Source of the DNA: Thermoanaerobaculia bacterium | GTDB taxonomy: Bacteria; Acidobacteriota; Thermoanaerobaculia; Multivoradales; UBA5704 | Direction: 5' to 3' | Assembly: GCA_035536455.1 (NCBI GenBank) | Contig: DATLOC010000053.1 | Location: forward strand, 135,478-199,477 | DNA: 64,000 nucleotides | Part shown: positions 2,684-21,578 of the stretch, piece after piece | Layout of the letters: each line of letters begins with the position of its first letter | Position numbering within the stretch: the stretch's first letter is position 1 | Notes under the pieces: generated by a model | Told to the model about the DNA's origin: nothing | What the model saw: the letters and a program-made list of their open reading frames with translations, nothing else | Databases searched by the model: none | Position numbers and translations under genes: made by a program

Positions 2684-2795
2684 GACGGCCGCCGCCGCGG
2701 CGCGGCCGGTCTCAGCCGTGAGCCCCGCCCGGAGGTCGAACTCCGCGGCCTGGGCGTCGAAGGAAGTCGCTGGGGTCAGCGGCGGCGCTCCGCGG

Positions 2796-5578: not shown

Positions 5579-7817
5579 CGTGGTGCAGCGGATCGAACTG
5601 GTAGAAGCGGAGCCGGCGCCCGGGGTCGAAGTTGTAGGTGATGTGGACCTTCTGGACGCTCGGCTTGTAGGGATCGCGGGTGGCGGGCGGCAGCATGACC
5701 GGCGCCGCCGTGTTGATCCACCAGTAGTTGCGGCCGAAGGTGAACCAGCAGCCCGAGCCCGCGACCTTGACCGACGACTTGTACTGGTTCTCCCAGCCGC
5801 GGCCGCCGCCGAAGTCGACGTTGATGTAGCCGCGCTGGTAGTAGTCGCCGTTGATCAGCGTCACCTTGACCTGCGTGCCGCGGGTCTGGAACGGGGGGAA
5901 GTTGATGAGGGTGCCCTGGGTGAACTCGCCGTAGATCGTGTTGTTGACGTAGAAGAGGGTGAGGTCGGCGTCCTTGTCCAGCTCGACCCCCTTGGGGAGC
6001 TGGTTCCGCTCCTTCCAGTCCTCGAAAGCGCTCCAGCCGGCGTCGGCCTGCGCCCGCACCGTCTTCCAGTCGCCCGTGCCGGCGGCGTCGCGCGCCGCGC
6101 GAAGCGCCTTCCACATCTTCTTGGCCGGCGACAGGTCCCCGATCTGGGCGATCGCATAGCTGCGCGCCTCCTCGCTCGAGGTCGGGGCCGGGCCGAAGGT
6201 GTCGATCTCCCACTGGGCGAGCGTCTTGCCGGCCACCGGCATGGTGGCGTCGTCCATCACCTGCACGCGCGGCGGGTGCATGCGCCAGCCCCAGGTGTAG
6301 ATCAGCTTGTAGTACGGGCCGGGCGCCATCTTGATCTTGAGCACCGTGCGGGTGCCCTCCTGCATCGGGAAGAAGCTCTGGTCCATGCCCATCCCCGGGC
6401 GCTTCCCCGCCGGCGGCGGCGACGGCGGGATGCACGGCGGCGGCGGCGTGGGCGGATGCGGCGCGTCGGGGGGCACCAGGTTCCAGTACATGACGTAGGG
6501 GGAGAAGTCGTCCTCGCCGCGGGTCAGGACGTCGATCGTGTAGGTGACCGTCCAGGTGACGTCGAGGGCGTTGCCGAGGCCGCTGACGTCGAGCAGCCCG
6601 GTGTCGGACTCGAAGTGGTTGTCGTACCAGACCTGGTGGACGTCGACGTTGCCGCCCACCACCTTGCCCGTGGCGTCGTAGATCGGCAGCACCTTCTTGA
6701 TCTTCTCCGGCCCGTTGTAGTGCAGCAGCGGCAGGCCGCTGTAGGCGCGGTTGCGCACCGGCCTCCCCTCCAGGATGTCGATGCCGTTCTGGATGGCCGC
6801 GCGGATCAGCTCCGACTCGACCGGGTCGCGCGGGCCGACGTCGCGCAGCCGGTCCCAGAGGGCGTCGAGGTCCTGGGTCGGCGAGATGGGGTTGATCGCG
6901 GTGACCACCGGCTCGCCGTCGTGGAGGTTGTAGAAGACGGTCGGGGTCGAGGGCAGGGTGTTCTGCACCTCGTTCCCGAGGCTGTCGAAGAGGTTGGTGT
7001 AGACGGTGGGCAGGAGGTTCGTGCCCGGCGGATCGACGAACGGGTAGCTCTGCGGGAAGTGGCTCTCGCCGGTGACGATGGTGGTGACGTTGCCTTCCGT
7101 CGTCTGGCAGGAAGGCGCCAGCGGCGGCTGCGGGTGCGGGTGCTGGGCGAAGCCGGCGGCGGCGCCGAGGCCCAGGAGGAGCCCGGCCAGGGCGGCGAGC
7201 GGCAGCGGGCCGCGCCGGCGCGGCGCGCCGGCGGCCGGCGCGCGCGGCGCGAGCCAGGCGATGCGCTCGGCGATCCACGCCGGGTCGGTCCGGGCCGGCA
7301 CCGACCCCCACAGGCCCACCGCCGCGTTGCCGTAGCGCAGCAGGCCGCGCGAGCAGTCCTGGATCGGCGCGGCGGCGTGCTCGGCGTGCGCTCCGGCCGC
7401 CGCGGCGGTCCCGGCGTCGTGCAGGAAGAGCCGCGAGCGCAGCAGCTCCATCGCCGCCGGCTCGCCGGTCAGGAAGAGCCAGCCGGGGCCGGCGCCGTGC
7501 GCGGCGGCGAAGTCGCGCAGCGCCCGCGGCGTGTCGTGCTCGGGGTCGGTAGTGAGCGAGTAGAGGAAGACGTCCCGCCCCATCCGCCCGCCGACGAGCG
7601 CCTGCACCTTGGCCAGGTTGTCGGCTACCGGGTAGGCGGCCTCGCCGGCCAGCGAGAAGACGTGCAGCACGACCGTCTTGCCGCGCACCAGGTCGCTCCA
7701 GAAGCGCGCGCGGCGGCCGTCGTGGCCCTCGACCACGACGTCGGGGAAGTAGCCCGCCGGCAGCCCGCATTGCGGCTCCTCGGCCGCCAGCCCCAGCACC
7801 TGCCTGCGGTTCATCAT
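5553..7817 (-). CDS. Tat-exported protein with an N-terminal SCO-like thioredoxin fold lacking CxxxC, plus a ~550-aa C-terminal domain of unknown function
   Basis: MMNRRQVLGLAA (RR motif); VVLHVFSLAGEAAYP...DPEHDTP is SCO-like; Pro-rich linker [23 protein letters not shown]. Start ATGATGA overlaps the MCO stop. Confidence 0.6.
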   Translation of the reverse strand: MMNRRQVLGLAAEEPQCGLPAGYFPDVVVEGHDGRRARFWSDLVRGKTVVLHVFSLAGEAAYPVADNLAKVQALVGGRMGRDVFLYSLTTDPEHDTPRALRDFAAAHGAGPGWLFLTGEPAAMELLRSRLFLHDAGTAAAAGAHAEHAAAPIQDCSRGLLRYGNAAVGLWGSVPARTDPAWIAERIAWLAPRAPAAGAPRRRGPLPLAALAGLLLGLGAAAGFAQHPHPQPPLAPSCQTTEGNVTTIVTGESHFPQSYPFVDPPGTNLLPTVYTNLFDSLGNEVQNTLPSTPTVFYNLHDGEPVVTAINPISPTQDLDALWDRLRDVGPRDPVESELIRAAIQNGIDILEGRPVRNRAYSGLPLLHYNGPEKIKKVLPIYDATGKVVGGNVDVHQVWYDNHFESDTGLLDVSGLGNALDVTWTVTYTIDVLTRGEDDFSPYVMYWNLVPPDAPHPPTPPPPCIPPSPPPAGKRPGMGMDQSFFPMQEGTRTVLKIKMAPGPYYKLIYTWGWRMHPPRVQVMDDATMPVAGKTLAQWEIDTFGPAPTSSEEARSYAIAQIGDLSPAKKMWKALRAARDAAGTGDWKTVRAQADAGWSAFEDWKERNQLPKGVELDKDADLTLFYVNNTIYGEFTQGTLINFPPFQTRGTQVKVTLINGDYYQRGYINVDFGGGRGWENQYKSSVKVAGSGCWFTFGRNYWWINTAAPVMLPPATRDPYKPSVQKVHITYNFDPGRRLRFYQFDPLHHDVAVFSVH

Positions 7818-9718
7818 GGCTCGCGCTCCTCCTCCTGGTCCTCCTGGAAGCTCGAGGCGGCGGGCCGCGACTCGAGGTGCGGCGGCGCCGCTTCCGTGCC
7901 GTAGACCGCCGAGGCCGGCCGCGAGCCGACGAAGCCCTGGCCGGGCTCGACGATGTCCCAGCGCACCATCATCGAGTGGTCCTCGTGCACCACGTTGTGG
8001 CAGTGCATGACGTACTTGCCGAGGAAGTCGGTCCAGCGCATCACCACCTTGATCTCGTCGCCGGGCAAGAGCGTCGCCACGTCGCGCCGCTTGCCGCCCA
8101 TGAAGCGCTTGATCGGCTTGGGCTTGGGCCCGCCGTCGAAGTAAGGGACGTGGACCTCCTCCCCCTCGTGCCAGTCCTGCACCCAGCTGCGGTCGAAGGG
8201 CACGCCGTTGACCTCGAGGATCAGGAACTCGGTGAAGTGGCTGTGGATGGGGTGCGACCAGGAGTTGCCGCCGTTGCGGAAGATCCACACTTCCGCCGTC
8301 CCCTGCTCGATGCCGGCGTCGATGCGGTTGGGGTCGAAGACCTTGCCGTTGACCGTCCACAGGCCGCCGTCGTAGTCGAACTCCCACACCCGCTCGCGGC
8401 GGATCTCGCCGGGCTCGATGTGCGGCCACTCGCGGAACCTGTCGGGGACGCGGCTGGGGTCGGGGCCGGTGGCGGCGACGACCCGGAACTCGATCAGCGG
8501 ATCGCCGGGGTCGAGCATGCGGCCCGAAGGCCCCTTGCCGTTGGTCTGCTCGAGGCGGTTCATCACCCGCACCGTCTCCCCCACCCGGTACTGCGAGAAG
8601 TCGAGGATGATGTCCACGCGCTGGGCGACCGAGAGGAAGATGCTCTCGGCCTCGAGCGGCCGCGGCAGGATGTTGCCGTCGCCGCTGATGACGAGGAAGG
8701 GACGGCCGCTCGAGAGGAAGATCTGGTAGAAGCGCGACGGCCCGCCGTTCAAGATGCGGAAGCGGTACTTGCGCCGCTCGACCTCGAAGTAGGGCTGGAT
8801 GCGGCGGTTGACGGTGTAGCGGTCGCCGAGGATGCCGTCGGTGTTGAAGGGGTTCCAGCGCACCTGGCCGGTCTCGTCGAACATCACGTCGTGGAGGATC
8901 AACGGCACGTCGTACTTGCCGCTCGGCAGGCCCCAGGCGGGCGGCGGGTCGTTCTCGTTGCCGGTGTCCCGATCGTCGAAGAGGCAGTAGAAGCCGTCGA
9001 GCCCGGCGTAGACGTTCGAGGCGGTGAAGTCCAGGCGGTGGTCGTGGTACCAGAGGGTAGTGAGCTTCTCGCGCGGGTCGAAGTTGGACGGGAAGTTGGG
9101 GTAGTGGTGGTCCCAGAACTCACCGGTGTCGATCCAGTCCTGCGGCTGGCCGTCGCTCTCCGAGGCGGTGTGGCCGTTGTGCAGGTGGCTGGTCGTCGAG
9201 GGCAGCGCGAAGTTGACCTTGCTCACCCCGACCGGCGGCAGGTCGTTGTAGCGCCGCACCAGGATCGCCTCGCCGTAGCGCGCGTGGTAGGTGGGCCCGG
9301 GGGTCGAGCCGTTGAAGCCCCACGACAGGCTGCCGGTCTTCCACGGCGGGCCGTCGGAGCCCCACGTCGGGCTGCCGTCGCCGTAGGGCGGGTCCGGGTG
9401 GTAGGACCAGAGGAATTCCTGCTCGCGGATCTCGTAGAACTTCTGCGGCTTGAACTCCTCGTAGCGCTGGTGCGCGCGCGGATCGGGCTGCGGGTCGAGC
9501 TTCGCGACCGGCTGCATGATCGGCGGCACGAAGAGCGGCGCGACGAAGGGCCGCGCCGGCGGGCTCGGGGTGGCGAGATCGGGCGGCTCGCCGTCGGGCG
9601 GGCAGAGGAACTTGAGCAGATCGCTCGGGTCGGCGGCCGCGGCGCGCCGGGCGAGGAGCCCGGAACCGCCGGCCACCAACCCGAGCTTGAGGACTTCCCT
9701 CCGTCGGATCATCGGCAC
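7814..9718 (-). CDS. multicopper oxidase (three cupredoxin domains), Tat-secreted
   Basis: RRREVLKLG Tat motif. Copper-site motifs HLHNGH, WYHDH, HPIHSH and HCHNVVHEDHSMM. Confidence 0.85.
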   Translation of the reverse strand: MPMIRRREVLKLGLVAGGSGLLARRAAAADPSDLLKFLCPPDGEPPDLATPSPPARPFVAPLFVPPIMQPVAKLDPQPDPRAHQRYEEFKPQKFYEIREQEFLWSYHPDPPYGDGSPTWGSDGPPWKTGSLSWGFNGSTPGPTYHARYGEAILVRRYNDLPPVGVSKVNFALPSTTSHLHNGHTASESDGQPQDWIDTGEFWDHHYPNFPSNFDPREKLTTLWYHDHRLDFTASNVYAGLDGFYCLFDDRDTGNENDPPPAWGLPSGKYDVPLILHDVMFDETGQVRWNPFNTDGILGDRYTVNRRIQPYFEVERRKYRFRILNGGPSRFYQIFLSSGRPFLVISGDGNILPRPLEAESIFLSVAQRVDIILDFSQYRVGETVRVMNRLEQTNGKGPSGRMLDPGDPLIEFRVVAATGPDPSRVPDRFREWPHIEPGEIRRERVWEFDYDGGLWTVNGKVFDPNRIDAGIEQGTAEVWIFRNGGNSWSHPIHSHFTEFLILEVNGVPFDRSWVQDWHEGEEVHVPYFDGGPKPKPIKRFMGGKRRDVATLLPGDEIKVVMRWTDFLGKYVMHCHNVVHEDHSMMVRWDIVEPGQGFVGSRPASAVYGTEAAPPHLESRPAASSFQEDQEEEREP

Positions 9719-9817: not shown

Positions 9818-11431
9818 TCATTGACAGGCGAACGCCTCGATGTCCTGCACCGGGAGGTACGCCTTCCCCTGCGGGTTGAAGTAGCGCCGCGTGCGCCCGG
9901 TCTGGGTGTCGGTGACGATGACCAGCACCTCGACGTCGGTCAAGCCGCTGGCGAAGAACCAGTAGTGGTCGTTGACGGCGCAGCCTTCGAGCACCTTGAC
10001 GACCAGCTCGGTGTTGTCCTCGTTGAAGAACCAGAAGCGGCCGGAGTCGGCGGTGTCCGCGACGGCGAAGCCGTGGCCGCCGACGCCGCCGGTCTTCCAG
10101 AGCGCCTCGACCTTGAAGCGTCCGCCCTGCAGGCAGAGGTTGGCGATGCCGGGGACGCAGGGGCCGCTCGCGGCGAGCGGCCCGAGCTGGCTGAAGAAGA
10201 CCAGGTCCCCGAGCGCCCGCCCGGTCTGCAAACCGACCTGGTTGTCGTACTGCCAGTGGATGCCGCCGTAGATGCGGCTCTGCCCCGCTTCGTTGGCCGC
10301 CTGCGAGAAGCTGGTGAACGAGCGCGTGACGCCCGGCAGGCCGTCGGAGCCGTCGTCGAAGGAGAAGTTGTCGGTGCCGAAGAACTGCCCGAGGACGCGC
10401 GCGGCCGCGCCGCTGAAGGTGCTGTGCCCGGAGGTGTAGGCCGGGAAGGGTGGCGTGACGATCAGCGGCGTCCAGGCGGGGTCGGCGACGGTGTTCGGGT
10501 TGCCGTCCTTGTCGGCGTTGGGGATGCCGGTGAAGGGCCGCCAGTGGTTGTAGGCGTACTTGTGGTCCCAGGAGACGATCGCCGCGTCGGCCTCGGCGAT
10601 GCTCAGCAGCGCCAGCAGGCGCGACTTCTCGAGCAGCGACAGCCCCTCCTCCTCGGCGATGTGCTGGGCGATCACCAGCCAGTGCCCGGGCGGAGTGGCC
10701 GTGCCCGCGCCATCGGCCCAGAAGAGGGCGATCTGGGTCTGCTCGGGGGTGCGCGTGCTGCCGGTGGCCCGGCCCAGGCGCTTCACCTCGTTGAAGGCGA
10801 TCGTGTACTGGACGCTGGTGAGCGAGGGCGGCGGCCCCGCCCGGAGCTGCGAGCCGGTCTGCAGCGCCCAGGGGGTGACCAGCGGCCACTGCGGCAGCAG
10901 TCCGGCGGCGAAGGCGGGACCGGTCGGGATCCACCAGTTGGCGCCGTCGATGGTGTTGTAGGCGACGACCCGGTCGTGGCCGTCGTCGACGCGCAGGGCG
11001 AGGATCTGGTCGGCCACGTCCTGCCCCCAAGCGACGCCGATGGCCGCCGCGTTGCCGTCGGCGATGGTCGCCAGCGAGGCCGCGAGGGCGGCGTCGAAGG
11101 TCGCCTGCTGCGCCGGGAAGAGCGCCGAGAGCGCGCGGTGCGCCGCGGCGGCCGCCGCGGCCTCCGGCGAGGCGCCGGCCGGGGCGTCGTCGGTGACGTG
11201 GTACGGCGAGTAGCCGCCGAGGATCCCGACCAGGGCGTCGAAGATCGAGACGTGGACGATCGCCATGGCGCGGCTGGCGCGCGGCGGCGGCGTCTTGTCG
11301 GTGCGGACGGCGTCGAGCAGCTCCTCGTTCCAGTCCGACACGACGTCGGCGCGGGCGGCGCCGGCGGCGCCGAGCAGCCCGGCGCACAGCATGAGGACGA
11401 ACAGCTTCCGAGACATGACGGCCTCCTTCAA
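9818..11431 (-). CDS. secreted PAP2-superfamily / vanadium-dependent haloperoxidase-like protein
   Basis: Signal peptide. PAP2 motifs K-x6-RP (KYAYNHWRP), SGH (YTSGHSTF) and SR-x5-H-x3-D (SRIYGGIHWQYD). Confidence 0.75.
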   Translation of the reverse strand: MKEAVMSRKLFVLMLCAGLLGAAGAARADVVSDWNEELLDAVRTDKTPPPRASRAMAIVHVSIFDALVGILGGYSPYHVTDDAPAGASPEAAAAAAAHRALSALFPAQQATFDAALAASLATIADGNAAAIGVAWGQDVADQILALRVDDGHDRVVAYNTIDGANWWIPTGPAFAAGLLPQWPLVTPWALQTGSQLRAGPPPSLTSVQYTIAFNEVKRLGRATGSTRTPEQTQIALFWADGAGTATPPGHWLVIAQHIAEEEGLSLLEKSRLLALLSIAEADAAIVSWDHKYAYNHWRPFTGIPNADKDGNPNTVADPAWTPLIVTPPFPAYTSGHSTFSGAAARVLGQFFGTDNFSFDDGSDGLPGVTRSFTSFSQAANEAGQSRIYGGIHWQYDNQVGLQTGRALGDLVFFSQLGPLAASGPCVPGIANLCLQGGRFKVEALWKTGGVGGHGFAVADTADSGRFWFFNEDNTELVVKVLEGCAVNDHYWFFASGLTDVEVLVIVTDTQTGRTRRYFNPQGKAYLPVQDIEAFACQ

Positions 11432-11563: not shown

Positions 11564-13018
11564 TCAGTAGCGCGGGACCGCCGGGTCGACCCGGGTGCTC
11601 CAGGCGTCGATGCCGCCGGCGAGGTTCTTGGCGCGGTCGTAGCCCATGCTCAGGAGGAAGGCGACCGCCTGCGCCGAGCGCATGCCGTGGTGGCAGTGGG
11701 CGACGATGGTGGCTGCCGGGTCGAGCTCGCCCAGACGGTCGCGCAGCTCCTGGAGCGGGATGAGCCGCGCCCCCTCGATGCGCGCGATGTCGTGCTCCTG
11801 CGGGCTCCGCACGTCGAGCACCACCAGGTCGCGCCCCTCGTCGCGCCAGCGCTTGAGCTCCTCGGGCTGCACGTCGAAGTCGTATCCCATCGCCCCCTCC
11901 GGCCGCGGCGCGACGCCGCAGAACTGCTCGTAGTCGATCAGGCCGCGCTGCGTCGGGTGCTCGGAGCAAACCGGGCAGGCGGGGTCCTTGCGCAGCTTGA
12001 GCTCGCGGAACCGCATCTTGAGGGCGTCGAAGAGGACGAGGCGCCCGATCAGCGGCTCCCCCACCCCGACGACCAGCTTCACCACCTCGTTGGCCTGCAG
12101 CGCGCCGATGATCCCGGGCAGCACGCCGAGCACCCCGCCCTCGGCGCAGGAGGGCACCAGCCCGGGCGGCGGCGGCTCCGGGAAGAGGCAGCGGTAGCAG
12201 GGCCCGCGCGCCCCCCAGAAGATCGAGACCTGCCCCTCGAAGCGGAAGATCGAGCCGTAGACGTTGGGCTTGCCGGCCAGCACGCAGGCGTCGTTGACGA
12301 GATACCGGGTGGGGAAGTTGTCGGTGCCGTCCACGACGATGTCGTAGCCGGCGAAGAGCTCGAGGGCGTTCTGCGAGGTGAGGCGGGTCTCGTGCGGCAC
12401 AAGAGTCACGTGCGGGTTGACGTCGTGCAGCCGCTCGAGCGCCGCCTGGATCTTCGGGCGGCCGACGTCCGAGCGGCCGTAGAGCACCTGGCGGTGGAGG
12501 TTCGACTCGTCGACGACGTCGAAGTCGACCAGCCCGAGCTTGCCGACGCCGGCCGCCGCGAGGTAGAGCCCCAGCGGCGACCCCAGCCCGCCGGCGCCGA
12601 TGAGCAGGACGCGCGAGGCCTTGAGCTTCCGCTGCCCCGCCGTCCCCACCTCCGGCATGATGAGGTGGCGGCTGTAGTGGCGGATCTCGGAGGGCTCCAG
12701 CTCGGGAAGGTCCGCGGCTCGCGCCGGCGGCGGCTCCGCCGCCACGCCGCCGGCAATCGACGGCACGATCGAGAGCGCGTCCCCCGCCGCCACTGGCGAG
12801 CGCTCGCGCGCCGCGAGGTAGCGCACGTCCTCGTCGTTGACGAAGACGTTGACGAAGCTGCGCAGGCGCCCGTCGTCGGTGTAGAGGTGGCGCTCGAGCC
12901 CCGGGTGGCGCCGGACGAGGTCGCGCAGCGCCTCCTCGACCGTCGCCCCCTCGACCGCGATCTCCCCCTGCTCGCCGGTGAAGCGGCGGAGCGGGGTCGG
13001 GATGTGGATGGTCGGCAT
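11564..13018 (-). CDS. moeZ: MoaD/CysO-like sulfur-carrier domain (ends ...SIAGG) fused to a MoeZ/MoeB-ThiF E1 adenylyltransferase and a C-terminal rhodanese
   Basis: The N-terminal ~90 aa are a ThiS/MoaD fold ending in GG. E1 motifs GAGGLGS, CYRC...CPVC. Rhodanese active-site CHHGMRS. Confidence 0.8.
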   Translation of the reverse strand: MPTIHIPTPLRRFTGEQGEIAVEGATVEEALRDLVRRHPGLERHLYTDDGRLRSFVNVFVNDEDVRYLAARERSPVAAGDALSIVPSIAGGVAAEPPPARAADLPELEPSEIRHYSRHLIMPEVGTAGQRKLKASRVLLIGAGGLGSPLGLYLAAAGVGKLGLVDFDVVDESNLHRQVLYGRSDVGRPKIQAALERLHDVNPHVTLVPHETRLTSQNALELFAGYDIVVDGTDNFPTRYLVNDACVLAGKPNVYGSIFRFEGQVSIFWGARGPCYRCLFPEPPPPGLVPSCAEGGVLGVLPGIIGALQANEVVKLVVGVGEPLIGRLVLFDALKMRFRELKLRKDPACPVCSEHPTQRGLIDYEQFCGVAPRPEGAMGYDFDVQPEELKRWRDEGRDLVVLDVRSPQEHDIARIEGARLIPLQELRDRLGELDPAATIVAHCHHGMRSAQAVAFLLSMGYDRAKNLAGGIDAWSTRVDPAVPRY

Positions 13019-13040
13019 CGGTGTCTCCTACTCCTACTCC

Positions 13041-13523
13041 TTAGGGTGCGCTCTCGCTCCGCTCGGGCACCGGCGGACCGGCCGTGGCACTCTCCTCCGA
13101 CTGGCGCTCGATCGGCTCCTCGACGAAGGCGGAGCGGTCGTCGGCGAGGCGCCAGCTCCGCACCTCGGAGGCCTTGCCGTCGGTCACCGCCACGATCAGG
13201 TACGACACCCCCGGCCAGGCGTTCTCGCGGTCGAACTCGCTCGGCTGCGCCGGGTGGTCGGGGTGCGAGTGGTAGTAGCCGACGATCTCGAGGCCCTCCT
13301 CGCGCGCCGCGCGCTGCGCCGCGAGCACCGTCTCCGGGCCGATGACGAAGCGGTTGCCGCGGCTCTCCTCGCGCTCGTTGTCGGCCGGCACGATCCGCTG
13401 GACCAGCAGCCGCTCACCCTCGGCCTTGCCGAGGAGGATGCCGCAGCACTCCTCGGGGTAGGCCGCGGCGGCGTGCCGCTCGATGGCGGCCAGGTCGGAG
13501 GGCACGAGGACGAGGGCGGTCAT
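13041..13523 (-). CDS. mec: JAMM/MPN+ zinc metalloprotease (Mec-like CysO-processing enzyme)
   Basis: EECCGILLG plus YYHSHPDHPAQPSEFD (JAMM). ATGA overlap with cysM. The track ORF's N-terminal extension is junk. Confidence 0.8.
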   Translation of the reverse strand: MTALVLVPSDLAAIERHAAAAYPEECCGILLGKAEGERLLVQRIVPADNEREESRGNRFVIGPETVLAAQRAAREEGLEIVGYYHSHPDHPAQPSEFDRENAWPGVSYLIVAVTDGKASEVRSWRLADDRSAFVEEPIERQSEESATAGPPVPERSESAP

Positions 13524-14506
13524 GACGGGCTCGCGGGCTCCTCCCAGAAGCGCTCGGACAGGTACTTGTCGGCGCCGTCGCAGAGGACCGTGACCAGCGT
13601 AGCACCCTCGCCGGCGCCGCCATCTCCGCCGGCGGCGAGCCGCGCCGCCAGCCGCAGCGCCGCCGCCACGTTGGCGCCCGACGAGATCCCGGCCAGCACG
13701 CCGGCCTCGCGCGCCAGGCGGCGGACCATGGCTTGCGCCTCCTCGGTCGTCACCTCCCAGGCCTCGTCGGCCAGCGCCGGGTCGTAGATCGGCGGCACGA
13801 TGGCCGAGGCCATGTGCTTCATCCCCTCGAGGCCGTGAAAGGCGCTGTCGGGCTCGACCGAGATCAGCCGCACGCCGGGCGCCCGCTCGCGGAGACACCG
13901 CCCCACCCCCATGAACGTACCGCTGGTCCCCAGGCCGGCGACGAAGTGGGTGAGGCGGCCGCCGGTCTGCGCCCAGATCTCGGGGCCGGTCGAGCGGTAG
14001 TGGGCGCCCCAGTTCTCGGGGTTGGAGTACTGGTCGAGGTAGGCGTAGCGCGCGGGGTCGGCCCCGGCGAGGCGGCGGGCCTCGAGGATGGCGCCGTCGC
14101 TCCCGGTCAGCGGGTCGGTGAGGAGCAGCTCGACGCCGTAGGCGGCGAGGATGCGCTTGCGCTCCGGGCTGGCGTTGGCCGGCAGGCAGAGCGTGACGGG
14201 GATGCCGAGAGCGGCACCGATCATGGCGTAGGCGATCCCGGTGTTGCCGGAGGTGGAATCGAGGAGCCGGCGTGGGCCGCCTGGCGCGAGGAGCCCGCGG
14301 CGGACGGCGTCCTCGATCATGGCGAGCGCCGGGCGGTCTTTGACCGAGCCGCCGGGGTTGGCCAGCTCGGCCTTGGCGTAGAGGCGGACGCGCGGGGACC
14401 CGGTCAGGTGCGAGAGGTCGAGGAGCGGGGTGCGCCCGATGAGGTCGAGCAGCCGGCGCGGCCCCGGGCCGCCGGCGGGCGAGGCTTCGTCCTCGGCCTG
14501 CGTCAT
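13520..14506 (-). CDS. cysM: cysteine synthase, CysM/CysK family (PLP-dependent)
   Basis: GGSVKDRPAL PLP lysine motif; TSGNTG; GTSGT loop. Start MTQAEDEA. Confidence 0.85.
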   Translation of the reverse strand: MTQAEDEASPAGGPGPRRLLDLIGRTPLLDLSHLTGSPRVRLYAKAELANPGGSVKDRPALAMIEDAVRRGLLAPGGPRRLLDSTSGNTGIAYAMIGAALGIPVTLCLPANASPERKRILAAYGVELLLTDPLTGSDGAILEARRLAGADPARYAYLDQYSNPENWGAHYRSTGPEIWAQTGGRLTHFVAGLGTSGTFMGVGRCLRERAPGVRLISVEPDSAFHGLEGMKHMASAIVPPIYDPALADEAWEVTTEEAQAMVRRLAREAGVLAGISSGANVAAALRLAARLAAGGDGGAGEGATLVTVLCDGADKYLSERFWEEPASPS

Positions 14507-14604
14507 GGAGAAGAGAGGAACCGGAGAGAGGGAGCTTCCACCTCCCAAGCTAACAGAGGTCGGCCGCGGGGGCAAGGGGCGGCGCGGCAGGGCCCACGCG
14601 GGAC

Positions 14605-15105
14605 TCAGTTCGCGTTCTTGTCGACCTGCTCGATCAGCGTCTCCGGCCCCGGCAGCGGCGCCACCAGCGCGGCCTCGACCGCCTCCTCCTCGAGCCCCTG
14701 CCGGTCGGAGGAGAGCCGCCAGGCCCGCGTCTCCACCACCTGGCCGGCCGAGATCGCCGTCAGCAGGTAGCTCATGCCCGGGCGCAGCGTCTCGAGCTCC
14801 AGCTCGCTCGGCGTTGCCGTGTCGCCCGCGCGCGCCAGGTAATAGCCGACGACCTCCATCCCCAGTGACTGCGCCTCGTGCGCGGCGGCGGCGTGGGTCT
14901 CGGCCGGGACCGGATCGGCGCCTTGACCTTCGCCGCCGCCGTCGGCCGGCTGCACCGCGAGGATCCGCTCGACGAAGATCTTCTCCAGGCCGTTGCGATG
15001 CGGGCGGCCGATGAGGACGCCGCAGCACTCGCCCGGGTACGTCATAGCGGCGTGGCGGCCGATGGCGTGCAGGTGAGTGGGCGAGATCACGAGATGGCAG
15101 TTCAT
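14605..15105 (-). CDS. MPN-domain protein lacking the JAMM histidines (predicted inactive paralog of Mec)
   Basis: GECCGVLIGR is conserved, but the HSHP-x7-S-x2-D position reads YYLARAGDTATPSELE. Start MNCHLVISP. Confidence 0.6.
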   Translation of the reverse strand: MNCHLVISPTHLHAIGRHAAMTYPGECCGVLIGRPHRNGLEKIFVERILAVQPADGGGEGQGADPVPAETHAAAAHEAQSLGMEVVGYYLARAGDTATPSELELETLRPGMSYLLTAISAGQVVETRAWRLSSDRQGLEEEAVEAALVAPLPGPETLIEQVDKNAN

Positions 15106-15222
15106 ACCCGGTTGCAACCCCTTCTCTCGGAGCGTCGTGGCCAGGTCGGCCACGCGGTTACGCGTCGTCACGGCCGCACTGCAAGAGCAGGGCCAGAGGC
15201 GTTTTCCTCTATCCTGCGCGGC

Positions 15223-15879
15223 ATGGACGACAGCGTCCGCACCGGCGGCGAGCGGGTGCCGCCCGGCCAGTACGTGACCGAGAAGTGGCCGGTCCTCACC
15301 TATGGCCCAGAGCCGCACGTCGAGCCGCGCGAGTGGACGCTACGCCTCTCCGGCCTCGTGGAGGACGAATTGGCGTGGAGCTGGGACGACTTCCAGGCGC
15401 TGCCGCGCGTGCGGGTGACGGCCGACTTCCACTGCGTCACCCGGTTCTCCACTCTCGACAACGCCTGGGAAGGCGTGGCTACCCGCGAGCTGCTGCGCCG
15501 GGCGCGCGTGCGGCCCGAGGCCTCGCACGTCCTCGTCCACTGCTACGGCGGCTACACCACCAACCTCCCGCTCGAGGACTTCCTCTCCGAGCGCGCGCTG
15601 GTGGCCGACACCTGGCGCGGCCAGCCGCTAGCGGTCGAACACGGCGGTCCGGCGCGGCTGGTCGTCCCCCACCTCTACGCCTGGAAGAGCGCCAAGTGGG
15701 TGAGCGGCTTCGAGCTCCTCGACGCCGACCGCCGCGGCTTCTGGGAGGAGAACGGCTACCACACCTACGGCGACCCCTGGCGCGAGGAGCGCTTCAGCTT
15801 CCAGGAAGTCAAAGAGGCCTACCAGGTCCGTCGGCGGGCGAAGGAGCTGGGGCTGGTGCCGGGCCGACCTCCTCGATGA
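15223..15879 (+). CDS. sulfite-oxidase-family molybdopterin-binding oxidoreductase domain protein (MsrP/YedY-like, short)
   Basis: TADFHCVTRFS, GYTTNLPLEDF, YAWKSAKWVSGFELLD — a pattern typical of Oxidored_molyb. 218 aa. Confidence 0.55.
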   Translation: MDDSVRTGGERVPPGQYVTEKWPVLTYGPEPHVEPREWTLRLSGLVEDELAWSWDDFQALPRVRVTADFHCVTRFSTLDNAWEGVATRELLRRARVRPEASHVLVHCYGGYTTNLPLEDFLSERALVADTWRGQPLAVEHGGPARLVVPHLYAWKSAKWVSGFELLDADRRGFWEENGYHTYGDPWREERFSFQEVKEAYQVRRRAKELGLVPGRPPR

Positions 15880-16015
15880 CGTCGCTCTCCGCCGGCGCGA
15901 GGGTGATCGTCAGCGGCCGGCCCACGGCCGCGGCTTCCTTCAAGAGGCGCAAGGACACCTCGAAGGACGGGCGTGCTCTCGGCAGGCGGTAGAAGCGGGC
16001 CGACTCGTAAAACAT
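15809..16015 (-). CDS. small hypothetical protein (MFYESARFYRLPRA...), immediately downstream of 78-bp element copy 1; an alternative start at 16090 encodes a MERMSRREMTVAHVREPPGAD leader
   Basis: Open frame only. It overlaps the 3' end of the convergent Mo-enzyme gene by ~70 nt. Confidence 0.3.
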   Translation of the reverse strand: MFYESARFYRLPRARPSFEVSLRLLKEAAAVGRPLTITLAPAESDVIEEVGPAPAPAPSPADGPGRPL

Positions 16016-16026
16016 GACCTCGACGT

Positions 16027-16104
16027 GATCCGCCCCCGGCGGCTCGCGAACGTGAGCCACCGTCATCTCGCGCCGACTCATCCGCTCCATCCTACGGGCA
16101 GGTG
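16027..16104. repeat. 78-bp element, copy 1 (2 mismatches to copy 2 at 21501-21578)
   Basis: ATCCGCCCC[C/T]GGCGGCTCGCGAACGTGAGCCACCGTCATCTCGCGCCGACTCATCCGCTCC[A/G]TCCTACGGGCAGGTGA. On the minus-strand RNA it folds CGGUGGCUC-ACGUUCGC-GAGCCGCCG. Confidence 0.8.
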
Positions 16105-17048
16105 ACCCCGTTCTTGTACCCGATCAGCGTGCCGTTCGTCGCCGTGTACGACGGATCCGTGGTGAACGTGGTGGTCGAGCCGAAGGCCGGCGTGTAGGCC
16201 GAGCCCGGCTGGATCGAGTACTTCGACACTCTGGCGTGCGGATGGCAAGCGGGGTTCTCCTGCGCGGCCAGCCAACTGCTCAGGAGCACCGGCTTGTCGA
16301 ACATGCCGGGGTCGATGACCATCGCCAGCTCGGCGCTGACGCCCAGCTTCTTGATGGTGATGCGCACCCGCACGAGGGGAGCGACGTGGTACCACCAGGT
16401 CACGCAGCAGCCGCCCCATTTGTTCGCCTGCACCGACAGCCGGTCGAAGTTGTCGACGGCAAAGCTGAACACCTTCTCGCAGCAGTAGCCGTACTGGGTG
16501 GTGATGATCCGGCGCATCTCGTGGGCGCGCGCGTAGCAACCATCCCTCACGTACTGGAACGGGATGCAGTTCGGCACGCCGAACGGCCCCGGCAGGTGAC
16601 ACGACTGTTGCGCGCAGAAGTCGAAGATCGCCTTGGCCGTCGCGTAGTTCGGGACGACGCGCTTGCAGAGCAGGAAGACCGGGATCTTCAGATAGTGCTC
16701 GACGATGTTGAAGGTCGTCGGATCGATCTTCGAGAGGTCGATGTCATGGATCTTCTCGGGCCTCTCGACGTAGGTCCGGCGGCGTTGGAACTCCTCCAGC
16801 TCCACACCGCGGAGGACGTGGATACGCCCGATGAAGCCCCGCCCCTCGTCGAGCTGAGCTTTCACCGGAGCGCCCTTCTCGAAGGCCTCCTCGAGCCGGG
16901 CCGTCGAGGCCTCGGCGGTCCTGGTGGTGGCCGACCGGAAGGTGTAGATCCGCTGCTTCTCGTTGAACAGATACTCGGTCTCCTGCTCGCCCCTGCCCCT
17001 GCGAATGGCGGCGATCGTCAGGAGCTCCTCGCGCGGTTCCCTGGTCAT
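16092..17048 (-). CDS. protein-glutamine glutaminase (protein glutaminase, Cys-His-Asp) with an N-terminal pro-region and no recognisable signal peptide
   Basis: FQYVRDGCYARAHEMRRII...CCEKVF...GGCCVTWWYHVAPLV...VIDPGMF parallels the Chryseobacterium protein-glutaminase catalytic core (…VDGCYARAHKM…CEKQF…CCVAWSYHVA…IIDPSLF). Confidence 0.75.
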   Translation of the reverse strand: MTREPREELLTIAAIRRGRGEQETEYLFNEKQRIYTFRSATTRTAEASTARLEEAFEKGAPVKAQLDEGRGFIGRIHVLRGVELEEFQRRRTYVERPEKIHDIDLSKIDPTTFNIVEHYLKIPVFLLCKRVVPNYATAKAIFDFCAQQSCHLPGPFGVPNCIPFQYVRDGCYARAHEMRRIITTQYGYCCEKVFSFAVDNFDRLSVQANKWGGCCVTWWYHVAPLVRVRITIKKLGVSAELAMVIDPGMFDKPVLLSSWLAAQENPACHPHARVSKYSIQPGSAYTPAFGSTTTFTTDPSYTATNGTLIGYKNGVTCP

Positions 17049-17143: not shown

Positions 17144-19429
17144 GTGAAACGCATGAAAGCGGTTGGGATCAAGCAGCTGCAAGCCCTCGTCCTCGCTTGC
17201 GCCGCTTGGCTCGCCGTGGGCGCGGCACTCGCCGGCGCGGAGGAGGCGCTGGCCGCCGCCGAGGTGAGCGGCACCGCCGTCGGGCCCGGGGGCGAGCCGG
17301 CGGCGGGGGCGGTGGTCGCCGTCGTCGCCGCCCGGCGCAGCGAGCCGTCGGCGGTGGTGGTCGCCGGCGCCGGCGGGGCGTTCGCGGCGACGGTCCCCGC
17401 CGGCACCTACGCCCTGACCGCCACCCATCCGCAGTGGACGGCCGCCTGGTCGCCGCCGGCTGCCGTGAGCGGCAAGGTCGTTCGCGACCTGCGCCTCCTG
17501 GCGCCGGACGAGGGGGTCCTCCTCGAAGGCGACGTCCGCGACTCGACGGGGGCCGCCCTCGCCGGCGCGGAGGTGCACTGCATGCGCACCATCTCCAAGG
17601 GCGACCTCTTCGTCGGCCGCGCCGACGGCGCCGGGCGCTACGCGCTGCGCCTGCCGTCCTCGCCCTACTACGGCTGCCACGCGGCGGCCGACGGGCTGCG
17701 CTCGCCGCTTGTCGAGGTCGACGTCGACGTCGCCGCCGGAGCGGTACGGCGGGACCTGGTGATCCGCCGGCCGGCTCCCCCGCCGCAGGCAGTGGTGGAT
17801 TGGATCCGCGAGCAGGCGATCCCGCTGCTGACGACGCGCGCCGGGCACGGCTTCTCCGACCTGGCGCCCTTGCGCGACGTCGTCGGCGACGCCCGGGTGG
17901 TGGCCCTCGGCGAGGCCACCCACGGTACGCGCGAGTTCTTCCACCTCAAGCACCGCCTCTTCGAGTACCTCGTCGCCGAGCTCGGCTTCACCGTCTTCGC
18001 CATCGAGGCGAGCTGGCCGGAGTCCGAGGCGGTGGACGAGTACGTGCGGACGGGCCGGGGGAACCCCGCCGAGGCGCTCGCCGGGCTGTACATCTGGCCG
18101 TGGAACACCGAGGAGGTGCTCGACCTCATCCGCTGGATGCGGCAGTGGAACGCCGTGCCGGGGCACCGGCAGGTGCGCTTCTACGGCTTCGACGTCAAGG
18201 CCGCCGCGGTGGCGGCCGAGCGCCTGGCGGCGCGGCTCGGGCAGATCGATCCGGCGCTCGCGGCGGAGGCGGGGCCCGCCCTCGCCCGGCTCGCCGCGGC
18301 CGAGCGCGCCGCGCCCGAGCTCGCCGACGCCGACGAGGCGGAGTACCAGGCCGCCGTGGCCGGGGTGGCCGCGGTGCTGCCGCGGATCGCCGCGCGGCTG
18401 CCGCAGCCGGCGTCCGCCGCCGACCGGCAGGCGATCGTCGACCGGCACTACGTGCAGGTGCTCGAGCAGTACACGCGGCTGCGCGGCCCCGGGGGCGGCG
18501 GTCCGGTGCGCGACCGCGGCATGGCCGACAACGTGCGCTGGATCGCCGACGTCGCCGAGCCCGGGTCGCGCGTCGTCGTCTGGGCGCACAACTACCACGT
18601 CAACGTCTTCGCGGAGGGCTCGCTGCCCTGGATGGGCCACCACCTCGAGGCGGCGCTGGGTAAGGACTACCTGCCGGTGGGCTTCCTGTTCCACCACGGC
18701 TCGTTCCAGGCGATGGACCGCACCGGCGGCCCCCGCGGGCTCAAGGAGTTCACGGTCGGCCCACCCGCGGCAGGCACGCTCGAGGACACCTTCGAGCGCG
18801 CCGGCTGGCCGCTCTGCCTCCTCGACCTGCGCCGCCTGCCGGCGGAGGGCCCGGTCGCCGAGTGGCTCCGCGCCCCCCAGCTGTCGCGCGCCGTCGGCTC
18901 TTCTTTCAGCGGCGAAGCCGACATGGCGATGGAGCTGGTGCTGCCCGAGGTGTACGAGGCGGTGGTCTACGTCGAGGCGACGACGAGGGCCCGACCCAAC
19001 CCGCGGTGCAGCCGTAGGACGGGGCGGAGTTCACGTAGCGGGGCTCCGGGGGGTTCCCGGGAGGCGCGAGATGCGGAAGGAACGCTTGCGGATAAGGGAG
19101 CGCGACGTCCGGATAGATCCGCGAGCCGTCCGGATACATCCTCAGCGCGTCCGGATAGATCCGCGGGTCTTCCGGATCTATCCGCGGCGCTTCCGGATGG
19201 ATCTGCGGCGCTTCCGGATCTATCCGCGGGCGGTCCGGATACATCCTCGACGCTTCCGGATATATCCCCCGCGCTTCCGGATCTATCCGCCGCGCTTCCG
19301 GATACATCCGCAGGCCCTGGGGAGATGTCCGGAGGCCTCCCGGCGACCTCCGGAGAGGACGCGAAGAGGTCCTCGCCGCCGCCGGGCTCGTCACGCGGCG
19401 TCGTCAGCTTGCCCAGGAGGGTCCGATGA
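17144..19429 (+). CDS. secreted erythromycin-esterase-family (Ere) hydrolase with two N-terminal CarboxypepD_reg-like domains; the ORF continues in frame through tandem-repeat array A
   Basis: Signal peptide; LGEATHGTREFFHLKHRLFEYLV (Ere motif)...AVVYVEATTRARP; then a LPDLSAA-type heptad tail; stop in ATGA with the downstream ORF. Confidence 0.7.
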   Translation: MKRMKAVGIKQLQALVLACAAWLAVGAALAGAEEALAAAEVSGTAVGPGGEPAAGAVVAVVAARRSEPSAVVVAGAGGAFAATVPAGTYALTATHPQWTAAWSPPAAVSGKVVRDLRLLAPDEGVLLEGDVRDSTGAALAGAEVHCMRTISKGDLFVGRADGAGRYALRLPSSPYYGCHAAADGLRSPLVEVDVDVAAGAVRRDLVIRRPAPPPQAVVDWIREQAIPLLTTRAGHGFSDLAPLRDVVGDARVVALGEATHGTREFFHLKHRLFEYLVAELGFTVFAIEASWPESEAVDEYVRTGRGNPAEALAGLYIWPWNTEEVLDLIRWMRQWNAVPGHRQVRFYGFDVKAAAVAAERLAARLGQIDPALAAEAGPALARLAAAERAAPELADADEAEYQAAVAGVAAVLPRIAARLPQPASAADRQAIVDRHYVQVLEQYTRLRGPGGGGPVRDRGMADNVRWIADVAEPGSRVVVWAHNYHVNVFAEGSLPWMGHHLEAALGKDYLPVGFLFHHGSFQAMDRTGGPRGLKEFTVGPPAAGTLEDTFERAGWPLCLLDLRRLPAEGPVAEWLRAPQLSRAVGSSFSGEADMAMELVLPEVYEAVVYVEATTRARPNPRCSRRTGRSSRSGAPGGSREARDAEGTLADKGARRPDRSASRPDTSSARPDRSAGLPDLSAALPDGSAALPDLSAGGPDTSSTLPDISPALPDLSAALPDTSAGPGEMSGGLPATSGEDAKRSSPPPGSSRGVVSLPRRVR
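19083..19395. repeat. tandem array A: about 11 units of ~21 bp with consensus TCCGGAT-NN-ATCCGCGGCGCT (inverted-repeat core GGAT-NN-ATCC)
   Basis: Read directly: tccggatagatccgcgagccg / tccggatacatcctcagcgcg / tccggatctatccgcggcgct ... Paralogous to array B1. Confidence 0.85.
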
Positions 19430-19832: not shown

Positions 19833-21281
19833 CTACTGCAGCTGTTCCTCGCGCCTCAGCTTGTCCTGCTCCTCCTTCGGCGGCTGCGGCATGGCGACAT
19901 CGACCGCAATGCTGATTTCACCGACGGTGACGTCGGCGCGCACCTCCGCGGGTAGCGAGCGACCCTGCACTTCGATGCCCGACACCGGCACGAACGTGAC
20001 CTGCAGCTTCGTCGGGTCGCCGGCGGCGCTGATGGCCTTGTCGATCGGGTAGACGAACTCGGCCGGGTGGTAGTGATCCCGCCGCGTCTTGACGCCGGCG
20101 CCGAACAGTCCGAGCACTCCCACGAAATAGGGGCCGGCCGGATCCGGCTTGAGCCCCGCCGGTCCGACATAGACTTCCCAGACGGCGCCGGGCTCTGTGC
20201 TGGCTTCAACCCCCTTCACTTGCAGGACCGCGGTCTGCCCGGGAGCCTTCGCGATTTCCAGAAGGCGCGCACCCATCGCCTTGTCCGCGGCTTCGGGGTA
20301 AAGCGGCAGGCTCACCGGCACCTTCGACAGCCTGAAGGGTTTCGCGATTCGCACGATCACCCTGATATCGAAAATCTCCGGGTCCCAGATGCGCGGGCAG
20401 TACTGCTCGACCTGCGCGGGCTCTCCTTCATAGACGTAGCTGAGCTGCCTGGCCGCGCGCAGAACTTCGCAGCTGGTCATCCTTACTTCCCGGCAGCACT
20501 CGTCGAAGAAAGTGAACGACGTATTGCGCCAGGCCGCATCGCCGAGCGGATTGCTCCGGCCGCCGCCTTGCGCCAGCCACAGGTTCCACTGTCGATCGAC
20601 GTTGGAATGGTGCGCCCAGAAAATGGGATCCTGCGCCGCCGAGCTCACGCAGCACATGTTGCCACTGACCGCGCCATGAACGCTGCCGTGCGGACCGTTG
20701 ATACCGGATTGCGCATTGTAGAAATCGAGGAGCAGGTTCGCGTTCGTAACCGCCGTCCCCAGGGACGTCGAGATCGAACCGGTGCCGTTGTTCATGGCGG
20801 CGTTGCGGCTCGGATCGTGCAGCGCGCTGCCGACGACGCGGAACGCGGGCGGCAACTGGCGCTGCGCGGGATTGGCCCAATCCCAGTAGGGAAGGGCCCA
20901 GTCGTGCATGCGGGAATACTTCCTGACGATTCGTTCGAACCAGTAGAGATACATTCTGTGCCACGACCAGAAGAACTTTGGATCGGTGTGGCAGGTGTTC
21001 CAGGCGGTCTGAACCGGCGTCAGCGTCGTGCCATGAATGGCCGCCTGGTACATCCAGCTGCAAGGATTGCTGGTCGGCAGCGCTCTCATCGCAACGATCG
21101 CGCGGCGGTAGCCCCTGAGAACCGGATCGCTCTCCGCCATCGTGAACGCGTTGCGCCGCACGGTGGGTCCGGCCGCATAGTCGGCGAGCGCAGGAATGCC
21201 GGTGAATGGTTGCGACATCGCTCCCAGCAGGGCGGCGGCGCCGGTCTTCAGAGCGTCGCGACGGTTGAATCGAATGGTCAT
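19833..21281 (-). CDS. tyrosinase (type-3 copper), Tat signal, with a C-terminal lid-like extension
   Basis: MTIRFNRRDALKTGAAALLGA. CuA region HGTT...FFWSWHRMYLYWFERIV. CuB region HGSVHGAVSG...DPIFWAHHSNVDRQWNLW. GGAGGG RBS. Confidence 0.85.
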   Translation of the reverse strand: MTIRFNRRDALKTGAAALLGAMSQPFTGIPALADYAAGPTVRRNAFTMAESDPVLRGYRRAIVAMRALPTSNPCSWMYQAAIHGTTLTPVQTAWNTCHTDPKFFWSWHRMYLYWFERIVRKYSRMHDWALPYWDWANPAQRQLPPAFRVVGSALHDPSRNAAMNNGTGSISTSLGTAVTNANLLLDFYNAQSGINGPHGSVHGAVSGNMCCVSSAAQDPIFWAHHSNVDRQWNLWLAQGGGRSNPLGDAAWRNTSFTFFDECCREVRMTSCEVLRAARQLSYVYEGEPAQVEQYCPRIWDPEIFDIRVIVRIAKPFRLSKVPVSLPLYPEAADKAMGARLLEIAKAPGQTAVLQVKGVEASTEPGAVWEVYVGPAGLKPDPAGPYFVGVLGLFGAGVKTRRDHYHPAEFVYPIDKAISAAGDPTKLQVTFVPVSGIEVQGRSLPAEVRADVTVGEISIAVDVAMPQPPKEEQDKLRREEQLQ

Positions 21282-21500
21282 GTGCGGGTTCCCTCCATCG
21301 AAGGCAGCGGATTGATTGGCGAGAGACGGGCGGGCGGCATCGAGGAGATCGCGTAGCGCCTGCGTCGCGGCAACGCGAAAAGAGCGAGCGACTGCAGACC
21401 TCGACTGGGTCATCTCCGTGTCCCCTGGTGTGCCATTCCATCGCCCGGGTGTTATTGCGCCGATAATAGTCCCGCGTTCGACTGGATCGCAAGTCGCTGG

Positions 21501-21578
21501 ATCCGCCCCTGGCGGCTCGCGAACGTGAGCCACCGTCATCTCGCGCCGACTCATCCGCTCCGTCCTACGGGCAGGTGA
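21501..21578. repeat. 78-bp element, copy 2 (~220 nt upstream of the tyrosinase start)
   Basis: See copy 1. Preceded by a possible degenerate remnant of the glutaminase 3' end (…IEKFTCP*). Confidence 0.8.

Follow-up and report, generated by a model that had tools for sequence, protein, structure and literature searches.

A CysO-type sulfur carrier fused to its activating enzyme in a predicted cysteine synthesis operon of Acidobacteriota

Overview of the operon

Here, we describe a compact gene cluster in a 64,000-nucleotide stretch of DNA (the window) from a Thermoanaerobaculia bacterium of the phylum Acidobacteriota (GCA_035536455.1, contig DATLOC010000053.1, positions 135,478 to 199,477). 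Four minus-strand genes, transcribed in the order MPN2, cysM, JAMM protease, and carrier-E1-rhodanese fusion, probably form an operon for protein-thiocarboxylate cysteine synthesis of the kind known from the CysO/CysM/Mec/MoeZ system of Mycobacterium tuberculosis. The domain content suggests that the carrier is first produced in precursor form, joined to its own E1 enzyme, and that the first gene, MPN2, encodes a non-catalytic duplicate of the JAMM protease. Because the window has about 72% G+C and thus long spurious open reading frames (ORFs) on both strands, the real genes were fixed by profile matches. An earlier note, made from the letters of this DNA alone, had placed five genes between positions 11,564 and 15,879 and had proposed a CysO/CysM/JAMM-type sulfur-carrier cysteine operon; Pfam matches recover all five genes where the note had put them, and the proposed operon type is well supported by domain, motif, and PDB matches. 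The features are as follows.

14605..15105, minus strand: MPN2, MPN-fold protein without zinc ligands (MPN-), first gene of the operon, 166 amino acids (aa); Prok-JAB, E 7e-8
14797..14838, minus strand: degenerate JAMM motif of MPN2, L90-A-R92-x7-S100-x2-E103 (active form H-S-H-x7-S-x2-D); from alignments
13520..14506, minus strand: cysM, pyridoxal phosphate-dependent enzyme of cysteine synthase B type, 328 aa; PALP, E 1.5e-65
13041..13523, minus strand: JAMM/MPN+ metalloprotease, Mec-like, 160 aa; Prok-JAB, E 3e-28; PDB 2kcq, E 3e-31
13230..13271, minus strand: intact motif of the JAMM protease, H85-S-H87-PDHPAQP-S95-EF-D98; from sequence and alignments
11564..13018, minus strand: carrier-E1-rhodanese fusion gene, 484 aa; Pfam ThiS, ThiF, and Rhodanese
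12746..13018, minus strand: fusion residues 1-91, CysO-type beta-grasp carrier domain ending PSIAGG; PDB CysO matches and AlphaFold2 (AF2) model
12746-12748, minus strand: codon of Gly91 in the fusion, after which cleavage is predicted
12710..12745, minus strand: fusion residues 92-103, linker rich in A, P, and E; homolog alignment and AF2 model
11909..12709, minus strand: E1 adenylation domain of the fusion (MoeB/ThiF type) with GxGxxG, Cys291, C274/C277, and C348/C351; ThiF, E 1e-83
11597..11866, minus strand: rhodanese domain of the fusion with active-site loop C442-HHGMR; Rhodanese, E 6e-19
15106..15222, no strand: divergent intergenic region of 117 bp between MPN2 and the molybdoenzyme gene; from sequence
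15223..15879, plus strand: small molybdopterin-binding protein of the sulfite oxidase family, 218 aa, catalytic domain only; Oxidored_molyb, E 1e-40

The carrier is encoded as the N-terminal domain of its E1 enzyme

The fusion protein matches three Pfam families above their gathering scores, namely, ThiS at residues 4-91 (E 8e-12), ThiF at 115-350 (E 1e-83), and Rhodanese at 385-474 (E 6e-19), and the reading of a complete carrier fold running straight into ThiF and rhodanese domains is thus upheld. That the N-terminal domain is a beta-grasp carrier is indicated by both alignment and model. The alignment of residues 3-91 with two CysO structures runs from end to end: one is 4n6e_B (E 1.6e-17), the carrier in a complex with a cysteine synthase, and the other is 3dwg_C (E 5.9e-15), the CysO of M. 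tuberculosis. The internal PSIAGG of the fusion lines up with the C-terminal AGG of these structures. MoaD- and SAMP1-type structures give much weaker matches to this ubiquitin-like (Ubl) domain (2m19, E 2e-5). The AF2 model, built on 45 homologs, contains a confident beta-grasp fold at residues 1-86 (predicted local distance difference test score [pLDDT] of about 85-95), an apparently disordered linker at residues 87-101 (pLDDT below 50), an E1 domain, and a rhodanese domain predicted at high confidence.

As translated, the carrier does not have a free C terminus, since its GG occupies residues 90-91 of 484 and is followed by the linker and the E1 domain. Adenylation is impossible on a glycine held in a peptide bond, and a carrier role of the domain would therefore make cleavage of some kind a chemical necessity; the earlier argument that the GG has to be exposed by proteolysis, with the adjacent JAMM protease as the obvious candidate, is well supported by this internal position. 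In the alignment of close homologs, PSIAGG is invariant in all 121 fusions, and the linker that follows is hypervariable in both sequence and length (about 3 to 35 residues). An invariant PSIAGG beside a variable, disordered linker is the pattern expected if the GG must become a C terminus. Beyond the fused copy, a search with a Ubl-domain profile through all six frames of the 64-kb window and of its five related loci L001-L005 recovered no second CysO-like ORF.

The enzymatic part of the fusion appears intact. Across the 45 homologs, the columns of the nucleotide-binding motif GAGGLGSP are invariant or nearly so, and Cys291, C274-YR-C277, C348-PV-C351, and the rhodanese cysteine C442 are all invariant. 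The name moeZ that had been given to this gene does not hold. Voss et al. 2011 separate MoeZ/MoeZR from MoeB/MoeBR by a first CXXC changed to NYRD and a second CXXC that is mostly missing; the E1 of the fusion keeps both CXXC motifs, and it scores 502 bits with the NCBIfam MoeZ model, under the cut-off of 647. By this published distinction its sequence places it with the MoeB-rhodanese proteins (MoeBR/Uba4-like) rather than with the MoeZ type.

Fused and split carriers among relatives

The three-domain architecture is present in all 120 best database homologs (68-98% identity), whose named members are Thermoanaerobaculia proteins from metagenome-assembled genomes (MAGs) labeled MoeB or SAMP1. 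We also surveyed the phylogenetic range of the arrangement with one genome per GTDB species, yielding 80 loci annotated by BLAST. Of these, 66 carry the fusion, 12 have a separate carrier gene directly upstream of the E1 gene, and 2 have the E1 only. Among the 75 loci with enough flanking sequence for upstream genes to be counted, a JAMM gene lies immediately upstream in 71 and CysM is encoded upstream in 69. The fused form is seen in Thermoanaerobaculia, Vicinamibacteria, Blastocatellia/Pyrinomonadaceae, Bryobacterales, Eisenbacteria, and Gemmatimonadota, and Terriglobia mostly have the split form. All the major classes of Acidobacteriota include fused examples. Fusion of carrier and E1 thus appears to be the majority, usual arrangement in Acidobacteriota. 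An assembly or frameshift artefact as the source of the fusion is ruled out by the shared architecture of the 120 homologs and of the 66 species-level genomes.

In each of the 66 fused loci the carrier domain ends in [AS][IV]AGG and is followed by 4 to 36 unconserved residues. The split carriers do not end at GG either: all 12 extend 1-27 residues past it, with the tails MY, TA, AA, R, RN, V, GQEM, ARDRV, VAVVR, and LRGENIGD, a Cys-rich tail SCACCCPCRMNA, and one of 27 residues. These tails imply that masking of the GG and C-terminal trimming are a property of the whole family, with the fusion as its extreme form. The split loci are L030, L034, L046, L050, L053, L054, L066, L072, L076, L079, L084, and L089, and their carrier genes end near locus position 6270. 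In several of them, the E1 ORF continues in the same frame after one stop codon. The interconversion of fused and split forms within one phylum, with tails on the split forms, offers a clean comparative system for the evolution of Ubl precursors.

An exhaustive search of 50%-identity cluster representatives for distant fusions recovered full-length examples down to 42% identity, with named cluster members from Gemmatimonadales, a deltaproteobacterial MAG, and the Firmicute Evtepia. At 42-43% identity (loci L006 and L008), the JAMM and fusion genes are still adjacent, with overlapping stop and start codons, and in L008 the pair is followed by a PALP enzyme and a hexapeptide transferase, in L006 by other genes related to sulfur. 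Locus L006 and locus L007 (2247-9278) probably belong to a Firmicute lineage, one named cluster member being an Evtepia sp. In both, the JAMM and Ubl-E1-rhodanese genes lie beside those for an SrpI-like protein, a 606-aa protein of an aminotransferase family, and a hexapeptide transferase, with a class V aminotransferase and a PP-loop ATPase encoded divergently from the pair. CysM is missing from these two loci, which suggests that the module there feeds another sulfur-incorporation pathway.

Other fusion orders were observed in proteins from metagenomes. P0166 (619 aa) has an N-terminal JAB domain, and its positions 174-619 match 23-484 of the fusion from the window, giving the order JAB-Ubl-E1-rhodanese; P0164 (634 aa) has JAB at the N terminus and E1 at the C terminus; and P0147 (486 aa) has the order Ubl-GG-rhodanese-E1. 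Two Thermoanaerobaculia species encode a JAMM followed by an E1-rhodanese protein 80-81% identical to the window E1 (L019, 3663-5144; L020, 5929-7161), without a Ubl domain and without cysM, and L020 keeps the divergent, adjacent molybdoenzyme gene. Such loci resemble either a version of the operon reduced by deletion or a module paralogous to it.

JAMM protease, CysM, and a proposed pathway

The metal-site motif of the JAMM protease is complete (E25 and H85-S-H87-x7-S95-x2-D98), and its closest solved relative is the Salinibacter MPN protein 2kcq (E 3e-31). The earlier description of an intact site was correct in its residues (H85, H87, S95, and D98), and its spelling HSHP-x7 needs amending, as the strict form is HxH-x7-S-x2-D with the proline as the first of the seven. 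The best NCBIfam model for CysM is TIGR01138 (cysM; 337 bits, under the equivalog cut-off of 394), and its PDB matches include CysM of Escherichia coli (2v03, E 3e-64) and of M. tuberculosis (3dki, E 3e-58). The TGA stop of cysM overlaps the JAMM ATG (tcATGAcc); this overlap had been noted before, with cysM said to follow, and in transcription order cysM precedes the JAMM gene. A Shine-Dalgarno-like ggag repeat lies 22 nucleotides 5' of the fusion ATG.

We infer every chemical step of the pathway from homologs; what we observe here are domains, motifs, conservation patterns, and gene linkage. The JAMM protease would first cut after Gly91 and so separate the E1-rhodanese enzyme from a CysO of 91 residues with GG at its C terminus. 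The E1 would then adenylate the new C-terminal glycine, and the persulfide on rhodanese Cys442 would convert it to a thiocarboxylate. CysM would join the thiocarboxylate to aminoacrylate, formed from O-phosphoserine or O-acetylserine, to give CysO-Cys, which the same JAMM protease would hydrolyze, freeing cysteine and recycling CysO. The protease would thus have a double role in precursor processing and as turnover hydrolase, and MPN2 would be a duplicated JAMM without the metal site, retained in one small clade as a non-catalytic partner.

MPN2, a maintained paralog without metal ligands

MPN2 is 42% identical to the JAMM protease and keeps GECCG with its Glu. Alignment of the two MPN proteins puts L90, R92, and E103 of MPN2 at the H, H, and D ligand positions, so that the second MPN protein, previously described as a paralog that had lost its zinc ligands and kept the fold and the ECCG motif, is indeed of this kind. 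It matches positions 4-113 of the 114-position Prok-JAB profile (E 7e-8), and its AF2 model has an MPN fold (pLDDT 80.6, predicted template modeling score 0.75). The best Foldseek matches of this model are 2kcq, Rpn11, BRCC36, and PfJAMM1, with a probability of 1.00 for 2kcq, Rpn11, and PfJAMM1.

Only 16 database proteins resemble MPN2; the 10 true orthologs among them have identities of 62-93%, and the gene is restricted to a narrow clade within Thermoanaerobaculia. All 10 have lost the H, H, and D ligands and read YY[LV][AT]R[AG]G...ATPxELE where the active JAMM has YYHSHPDHPAxPSxFD. MPN2 was not found in L001, L002, or L009, nor in any of the 80 species-level loci, and the matches listed in a metagenome scan with MPN2 include a single locus, at 29% identity. 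As a second MPN- case, L035 was rejected: its JAB sequence has HSHPDHPARPS and then runs out of frame, probably because of a MAG frameshift.

The narrow distribution, together with a long stem branch, could be read as a sign that MPN2 is a functionless, decaying JAMM duplicate, with the molybdoenzyme a chance neighbor. We consider this unlikely. Every ortholog has an intact ORF at the identities given above, with the N-terminal half and GECCG conserved, and in the window and L003-L005 the gene lies only 10-98 bp from cysM, with which it shares its strand. The ratio of nonsynonymous to synonymous substitution rates (dN/dS) over four genomes is 0.15-0.54 for MPN2, compared with 0.35-0.68 for the active JAMM and 0.18-0.38 for CysM and the fusion. 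Since this ratio is no higher than that of the active JAMM, MPN2 is a maintained gene under purifying selection and not a decaying copy; intact ORFs and dN/dS together rule out a pseudogene. In a crude neighbor-joining tree, the MPN2 sequences form one monophyletic group with a long stem, next to the Thermoanaerobaculia operon JAMMs. This position is consistent with a duplication within the lineage, after which the copy changed rapidly and later came under constraint.

By analogy with known MPN pairs, the most attractive idea is that MPN2 may serve as a non-catalytic partner of the active JAMM or as a binder of the carrier. More specifically, and only tentatively, MPN2 might form complexes with JAMM or with the CysO domain and time polyprotein cleavage or CysO-Cys hydrolysis, as an independently evolved bacterial counterpart of MPN+/MPN- pairs. 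In eukaryotes, Rpn11-Rpn8, CSN5-CSN6, and BRCC36-Abraxas/KIAA0157 likewise combine an active JAMM with a ligand-less paralog of MPN fold; here the candidate pair is bacterial and stems from a recent lineage-specific duplication in a sulfur-carrier rather than a protein-conjugation context. If MPN2 does pair with JAMM, this would show an independent bacterial origin for the active/inactive MPN pairing that is typical of the COP9 signalosome and of the proteasome lid.

Weighing the cysteine synthesis reading

Several observations weigh against the proposed pathway or parts of it. In M. tuberculosis only MoeZR, and not MoeBR, thiocarboxylated CysO (PMC3227635), and the window E1 is of MoeBR type; this E1 could also serve a MoaD or ThiS encoded elsewhere in the genome. 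CysM lies under the NCBIfam cut-off and is no nearer to the M. tuberculosis than to the E. coli enzyme, so it might use free sulfide or thiosulfate too. A different protease could perform the cleavage, and a few fused loci have no nearby JAMM (L059 and L087). One distant fusion (P0175) has RG instead of GG. Finally, the absence of MPN2 from most relatives means that it is not needed for the core cycle.

A quite improbable alternative is that the Ubl domain is a permanent docking or regulatory domain of the E1, with the true carrier encoded elsewhere and the JAMM only hydrolyzing carrier-cysteine adducts. Iyer et al. 2006 (PMC1779556) inferred such a non-carrier role for a Ubl fused to ThiF where a solo ThiS is present (Campylobacter), and L056 carries, about 4 kb upstream, an additional stand-alone Ubl gene whose product stops exactly at GG; the RG of P0175 would also suit a non-carrier domain. 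Against this, the GG is invariant in the 121 close fusions and the 66 fused loci right beside a hypervariable linker, the domain aligns with CysO from end to end, and it is orthologous to the separate carrier genes that occupy the same position in the split loci. In addition, the window and L001-L005 offer no other CysO-like ORF that could supply the true carrier.

Least probable of all is that the operon is mainly a molybdenum cofactor (Moco) module, a MoaD-MoeB-rhodanese protein feeding the adjacent sulfite oxidase family enzyme with cysM as a passenger: the database name MoeB, the placement of the fusion in Moco biosynthesis by PMC11237513, the MoeB/MoeBR CXXC motifs of the E1, the dual service of M. 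tuberculosis MoeZR to CysO and MoaD alike (PMC3227635), and an Oxidored_molyb gene adjoining the operon in 12 related loci besides the window all speak for it, but the Ubl domain is far nearer to CysO (E 1e-17 and 6e-15) than to MoaD (2m19, E 2e-5), CysM lies upstream in 69 of 75 loci when the molybdoenzyme occurs in only 7 of 80, and moaE, moaA, and moaC are absent from the called genes of L001-L009 and from the window neighbors.

Relation to described systems

The chemistry of the CysO/CysM/Mec/MoeZR pathway has been described for M. tuberculosis (PMC3227635). The operon resembles that pathway (Rv1335, Rv1336, Rv1334, and Rv3206c) in its GG-ending CysO carrier, its CysM-type enzyme, its full-motif JAMM, and its E1 with a C-terminal rhodanese, and in both cases cysM and the JAMM gene share one operon. 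The two differ in several respects. In the window the carrier is fused to the E1, so processing would be needed before the first cycle; the E1 is MoeBR-type and encoded inside the operon, whereas the MoeZR-type enzyme of M. tuberculosis has its gene at a separate genomic site; the window has an additional MPN- paralog; and the gene order is not the same.

The earlier note had regarded the fusion and the MPN- paralog together as an undescribed variant. For the fusion this does not stand, since 66 of 80 loci are fused, such proteins are annotated as MoeB or SAMP1, and a 2024 fusion catalogue lists them (PMC11237513); for the MPN- paralog it does, as our literature search found no description of a bacterial MPN- partner of JAMM, and MPN2 is apparently the only new element. 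An operon of ThiS/MoaD, E1-rhodanese, JAB, and cysteine synthase appears in Table 1, row 4c, of Iyer, Burroughs, and Aravind 2006 (PMC1779556), with the same four functions in one predicted operon of the same phylum (the acidobacterium Solibacter usitatus). That table gives the carrier and the E1 separately, noting only the E1-rhodanese fusion, and does not mention an MPN- paralog; Ubl-ThiF fusions are described in the same paper. Makarova and Koonin 2010 (PMC2948915) report that Thaumarchaeota and bacteria have a Ubl-E1 fusion in common, and cluster 356 of the 2024 catalogue (PMC11237513) contains MoaD-MoeB and MoaD-MoeB-rhodanese fusions, with archaeal proteins more than 55% identical to those of Acidobacteria. 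These fusions have the domain order Ubl-E1(-rhodanese) seen here, but both accounts read them as Moco biosynthesis, without a link to JAMM processing or CysM. Our search for CysO fusions in Acidobacteria, which did not cover Burroughs et al. 2009 on the E1-like superfamily, returned nothing relevant.

There are precedents for carriers in which additional C-terminal residues or a fused enzyme cover the GG. HvJAMM1 cuts a linear SAMP1-MoaE fusion, an engineered construct, exactly after GG both in vitro and in vivo, and this cleavage is needed for activity (PMC4443979). M. tuberculosis MoaX must be cleaved after Gly82 (GG82), by a protease that was not identified (PMC4326299), and QbsD and CxnF have been proposed to trim QbsE and CxnE, respectively (PMC5925218). 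Unlike in SAMP1-MoaE, QbsE, CxnE, and MoaX, the partner here is the E1 itself and not a sulfur acceptor enzyme or a short tail.

The fused form appears to be the standard CysO-type cysteine route in Acidobacteriota, a very abundant soil phylum, and the database names MoeB and SAMP1 hide this cysteine synthesis context. The system also provides a natural test of whether JAMM proteases process Ubl precursors in bacteria, as eukaryotic deubiquitinases do with ubiquitin precursors, and of whether one protease can serve both maturation and turnover.

The divergent molybdoenzyme and surrounding genes

The small molybdoenzyme upstream of the operon had been described as convergent; it is instead divergent from MPN2, the two genes standing head to head with 117 bp between their starts. 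No sigma-70 consensus match was found in this divergent region, and the scan for promoters and terminators as a whole gave no hits; at 72% G+C such a scan carries little weight. The protein has 218 aa and matches PF00174 (Oxidored_molyb, E 1e-40) and no other Pfam domain, and so is without the C-terminal dimerization domain. Its scores with the NCBIfam SorA, SoxC, and MsrP models are far under their cut-offs. In an alignment with plant sulfite oxidase 1ogp, the Cys of the FHCVTR motif falls on the Cys of the QCAGN stretch, and it is presumably the conserved Mo-ligand Cys of the sulfite oxidase family. The gene is conserved, with a dN/dS of 0.09-0.26.

The same divergent position is occupied by a molybdoenzyme gene in L003-L005, L009, L011-L014, L017, L018, and L020. 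Three gene orders are observed among Thermoanaerobaculia loci: rhomboid, cysM, JAMM, and fusion, all in one direction (L001 and L002); a divergent molybdoenzyme gene followed by cysM, JAMM, and fusion (L009, similarly L013, L014, L017, and L018, and with a wider gap L011 and L012); and a divergent molybdoenzyme gene followed by MPN2, cysM, JAMM, and fusion (the window, L003, L004, and L005). Together, these orders imply that the molybdoenzyme gene and cysM were already neighbors when MPN2 entered the space between them. The place of the molybdoenzyme in the system is uncertain, and its link to the operon is positional; it is speculative that it disposes of sulfite set free during loading of the rhodanese from thiosulfate.

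Downstream of the fusion, the minus strand encodes a PAP2/vanadium-haloperoxidase-like protein (9818-11431) and a multicopper oxidase (7814-9718). This order is kept in L003 and L005, and the multicopper oxidase also occurs in L004, which is probably plain synteny among close relatives and not a functional link. On the other side, a minus-strand pair at 15809-17048 consists of a 93-aa ORF without a Pfam match, which shares about 70 nucleotides with the 3' end of the molybdoenzyme gene, and a 318-aa protein-glutaminase-like protein (Gln_deamidase_2, E 1e-23), which the 93-aa ORF directly follows; this pair is not among the called genes of L003-L005. Further along lie an erythromycin-esterase-family protein with an N-terminal CarboxypepD_reg domain (17144-19429, plus strand) and a tyrosinase/polyphenol-oxidase-like protein (19833-21554, minus strand). 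Several predicted oxidases, the multicopper oxidase included, thus lie within about 14 kb, and no link to sulfur metabolism was found for the multicopper oxidase, PAP2/vanadium-haloperoxidase-like, glutaminase-like, erythromycin-esterase-like, or tyrosinase neighbors. Upstream of the operon, the gene content thus varies even between closely related genomes: in L003, the closest of the long contigs, the rhomboid and molybdoenzyme genes are separated by a gene for a ParE toxin with a small gene upstream (2647-3164).

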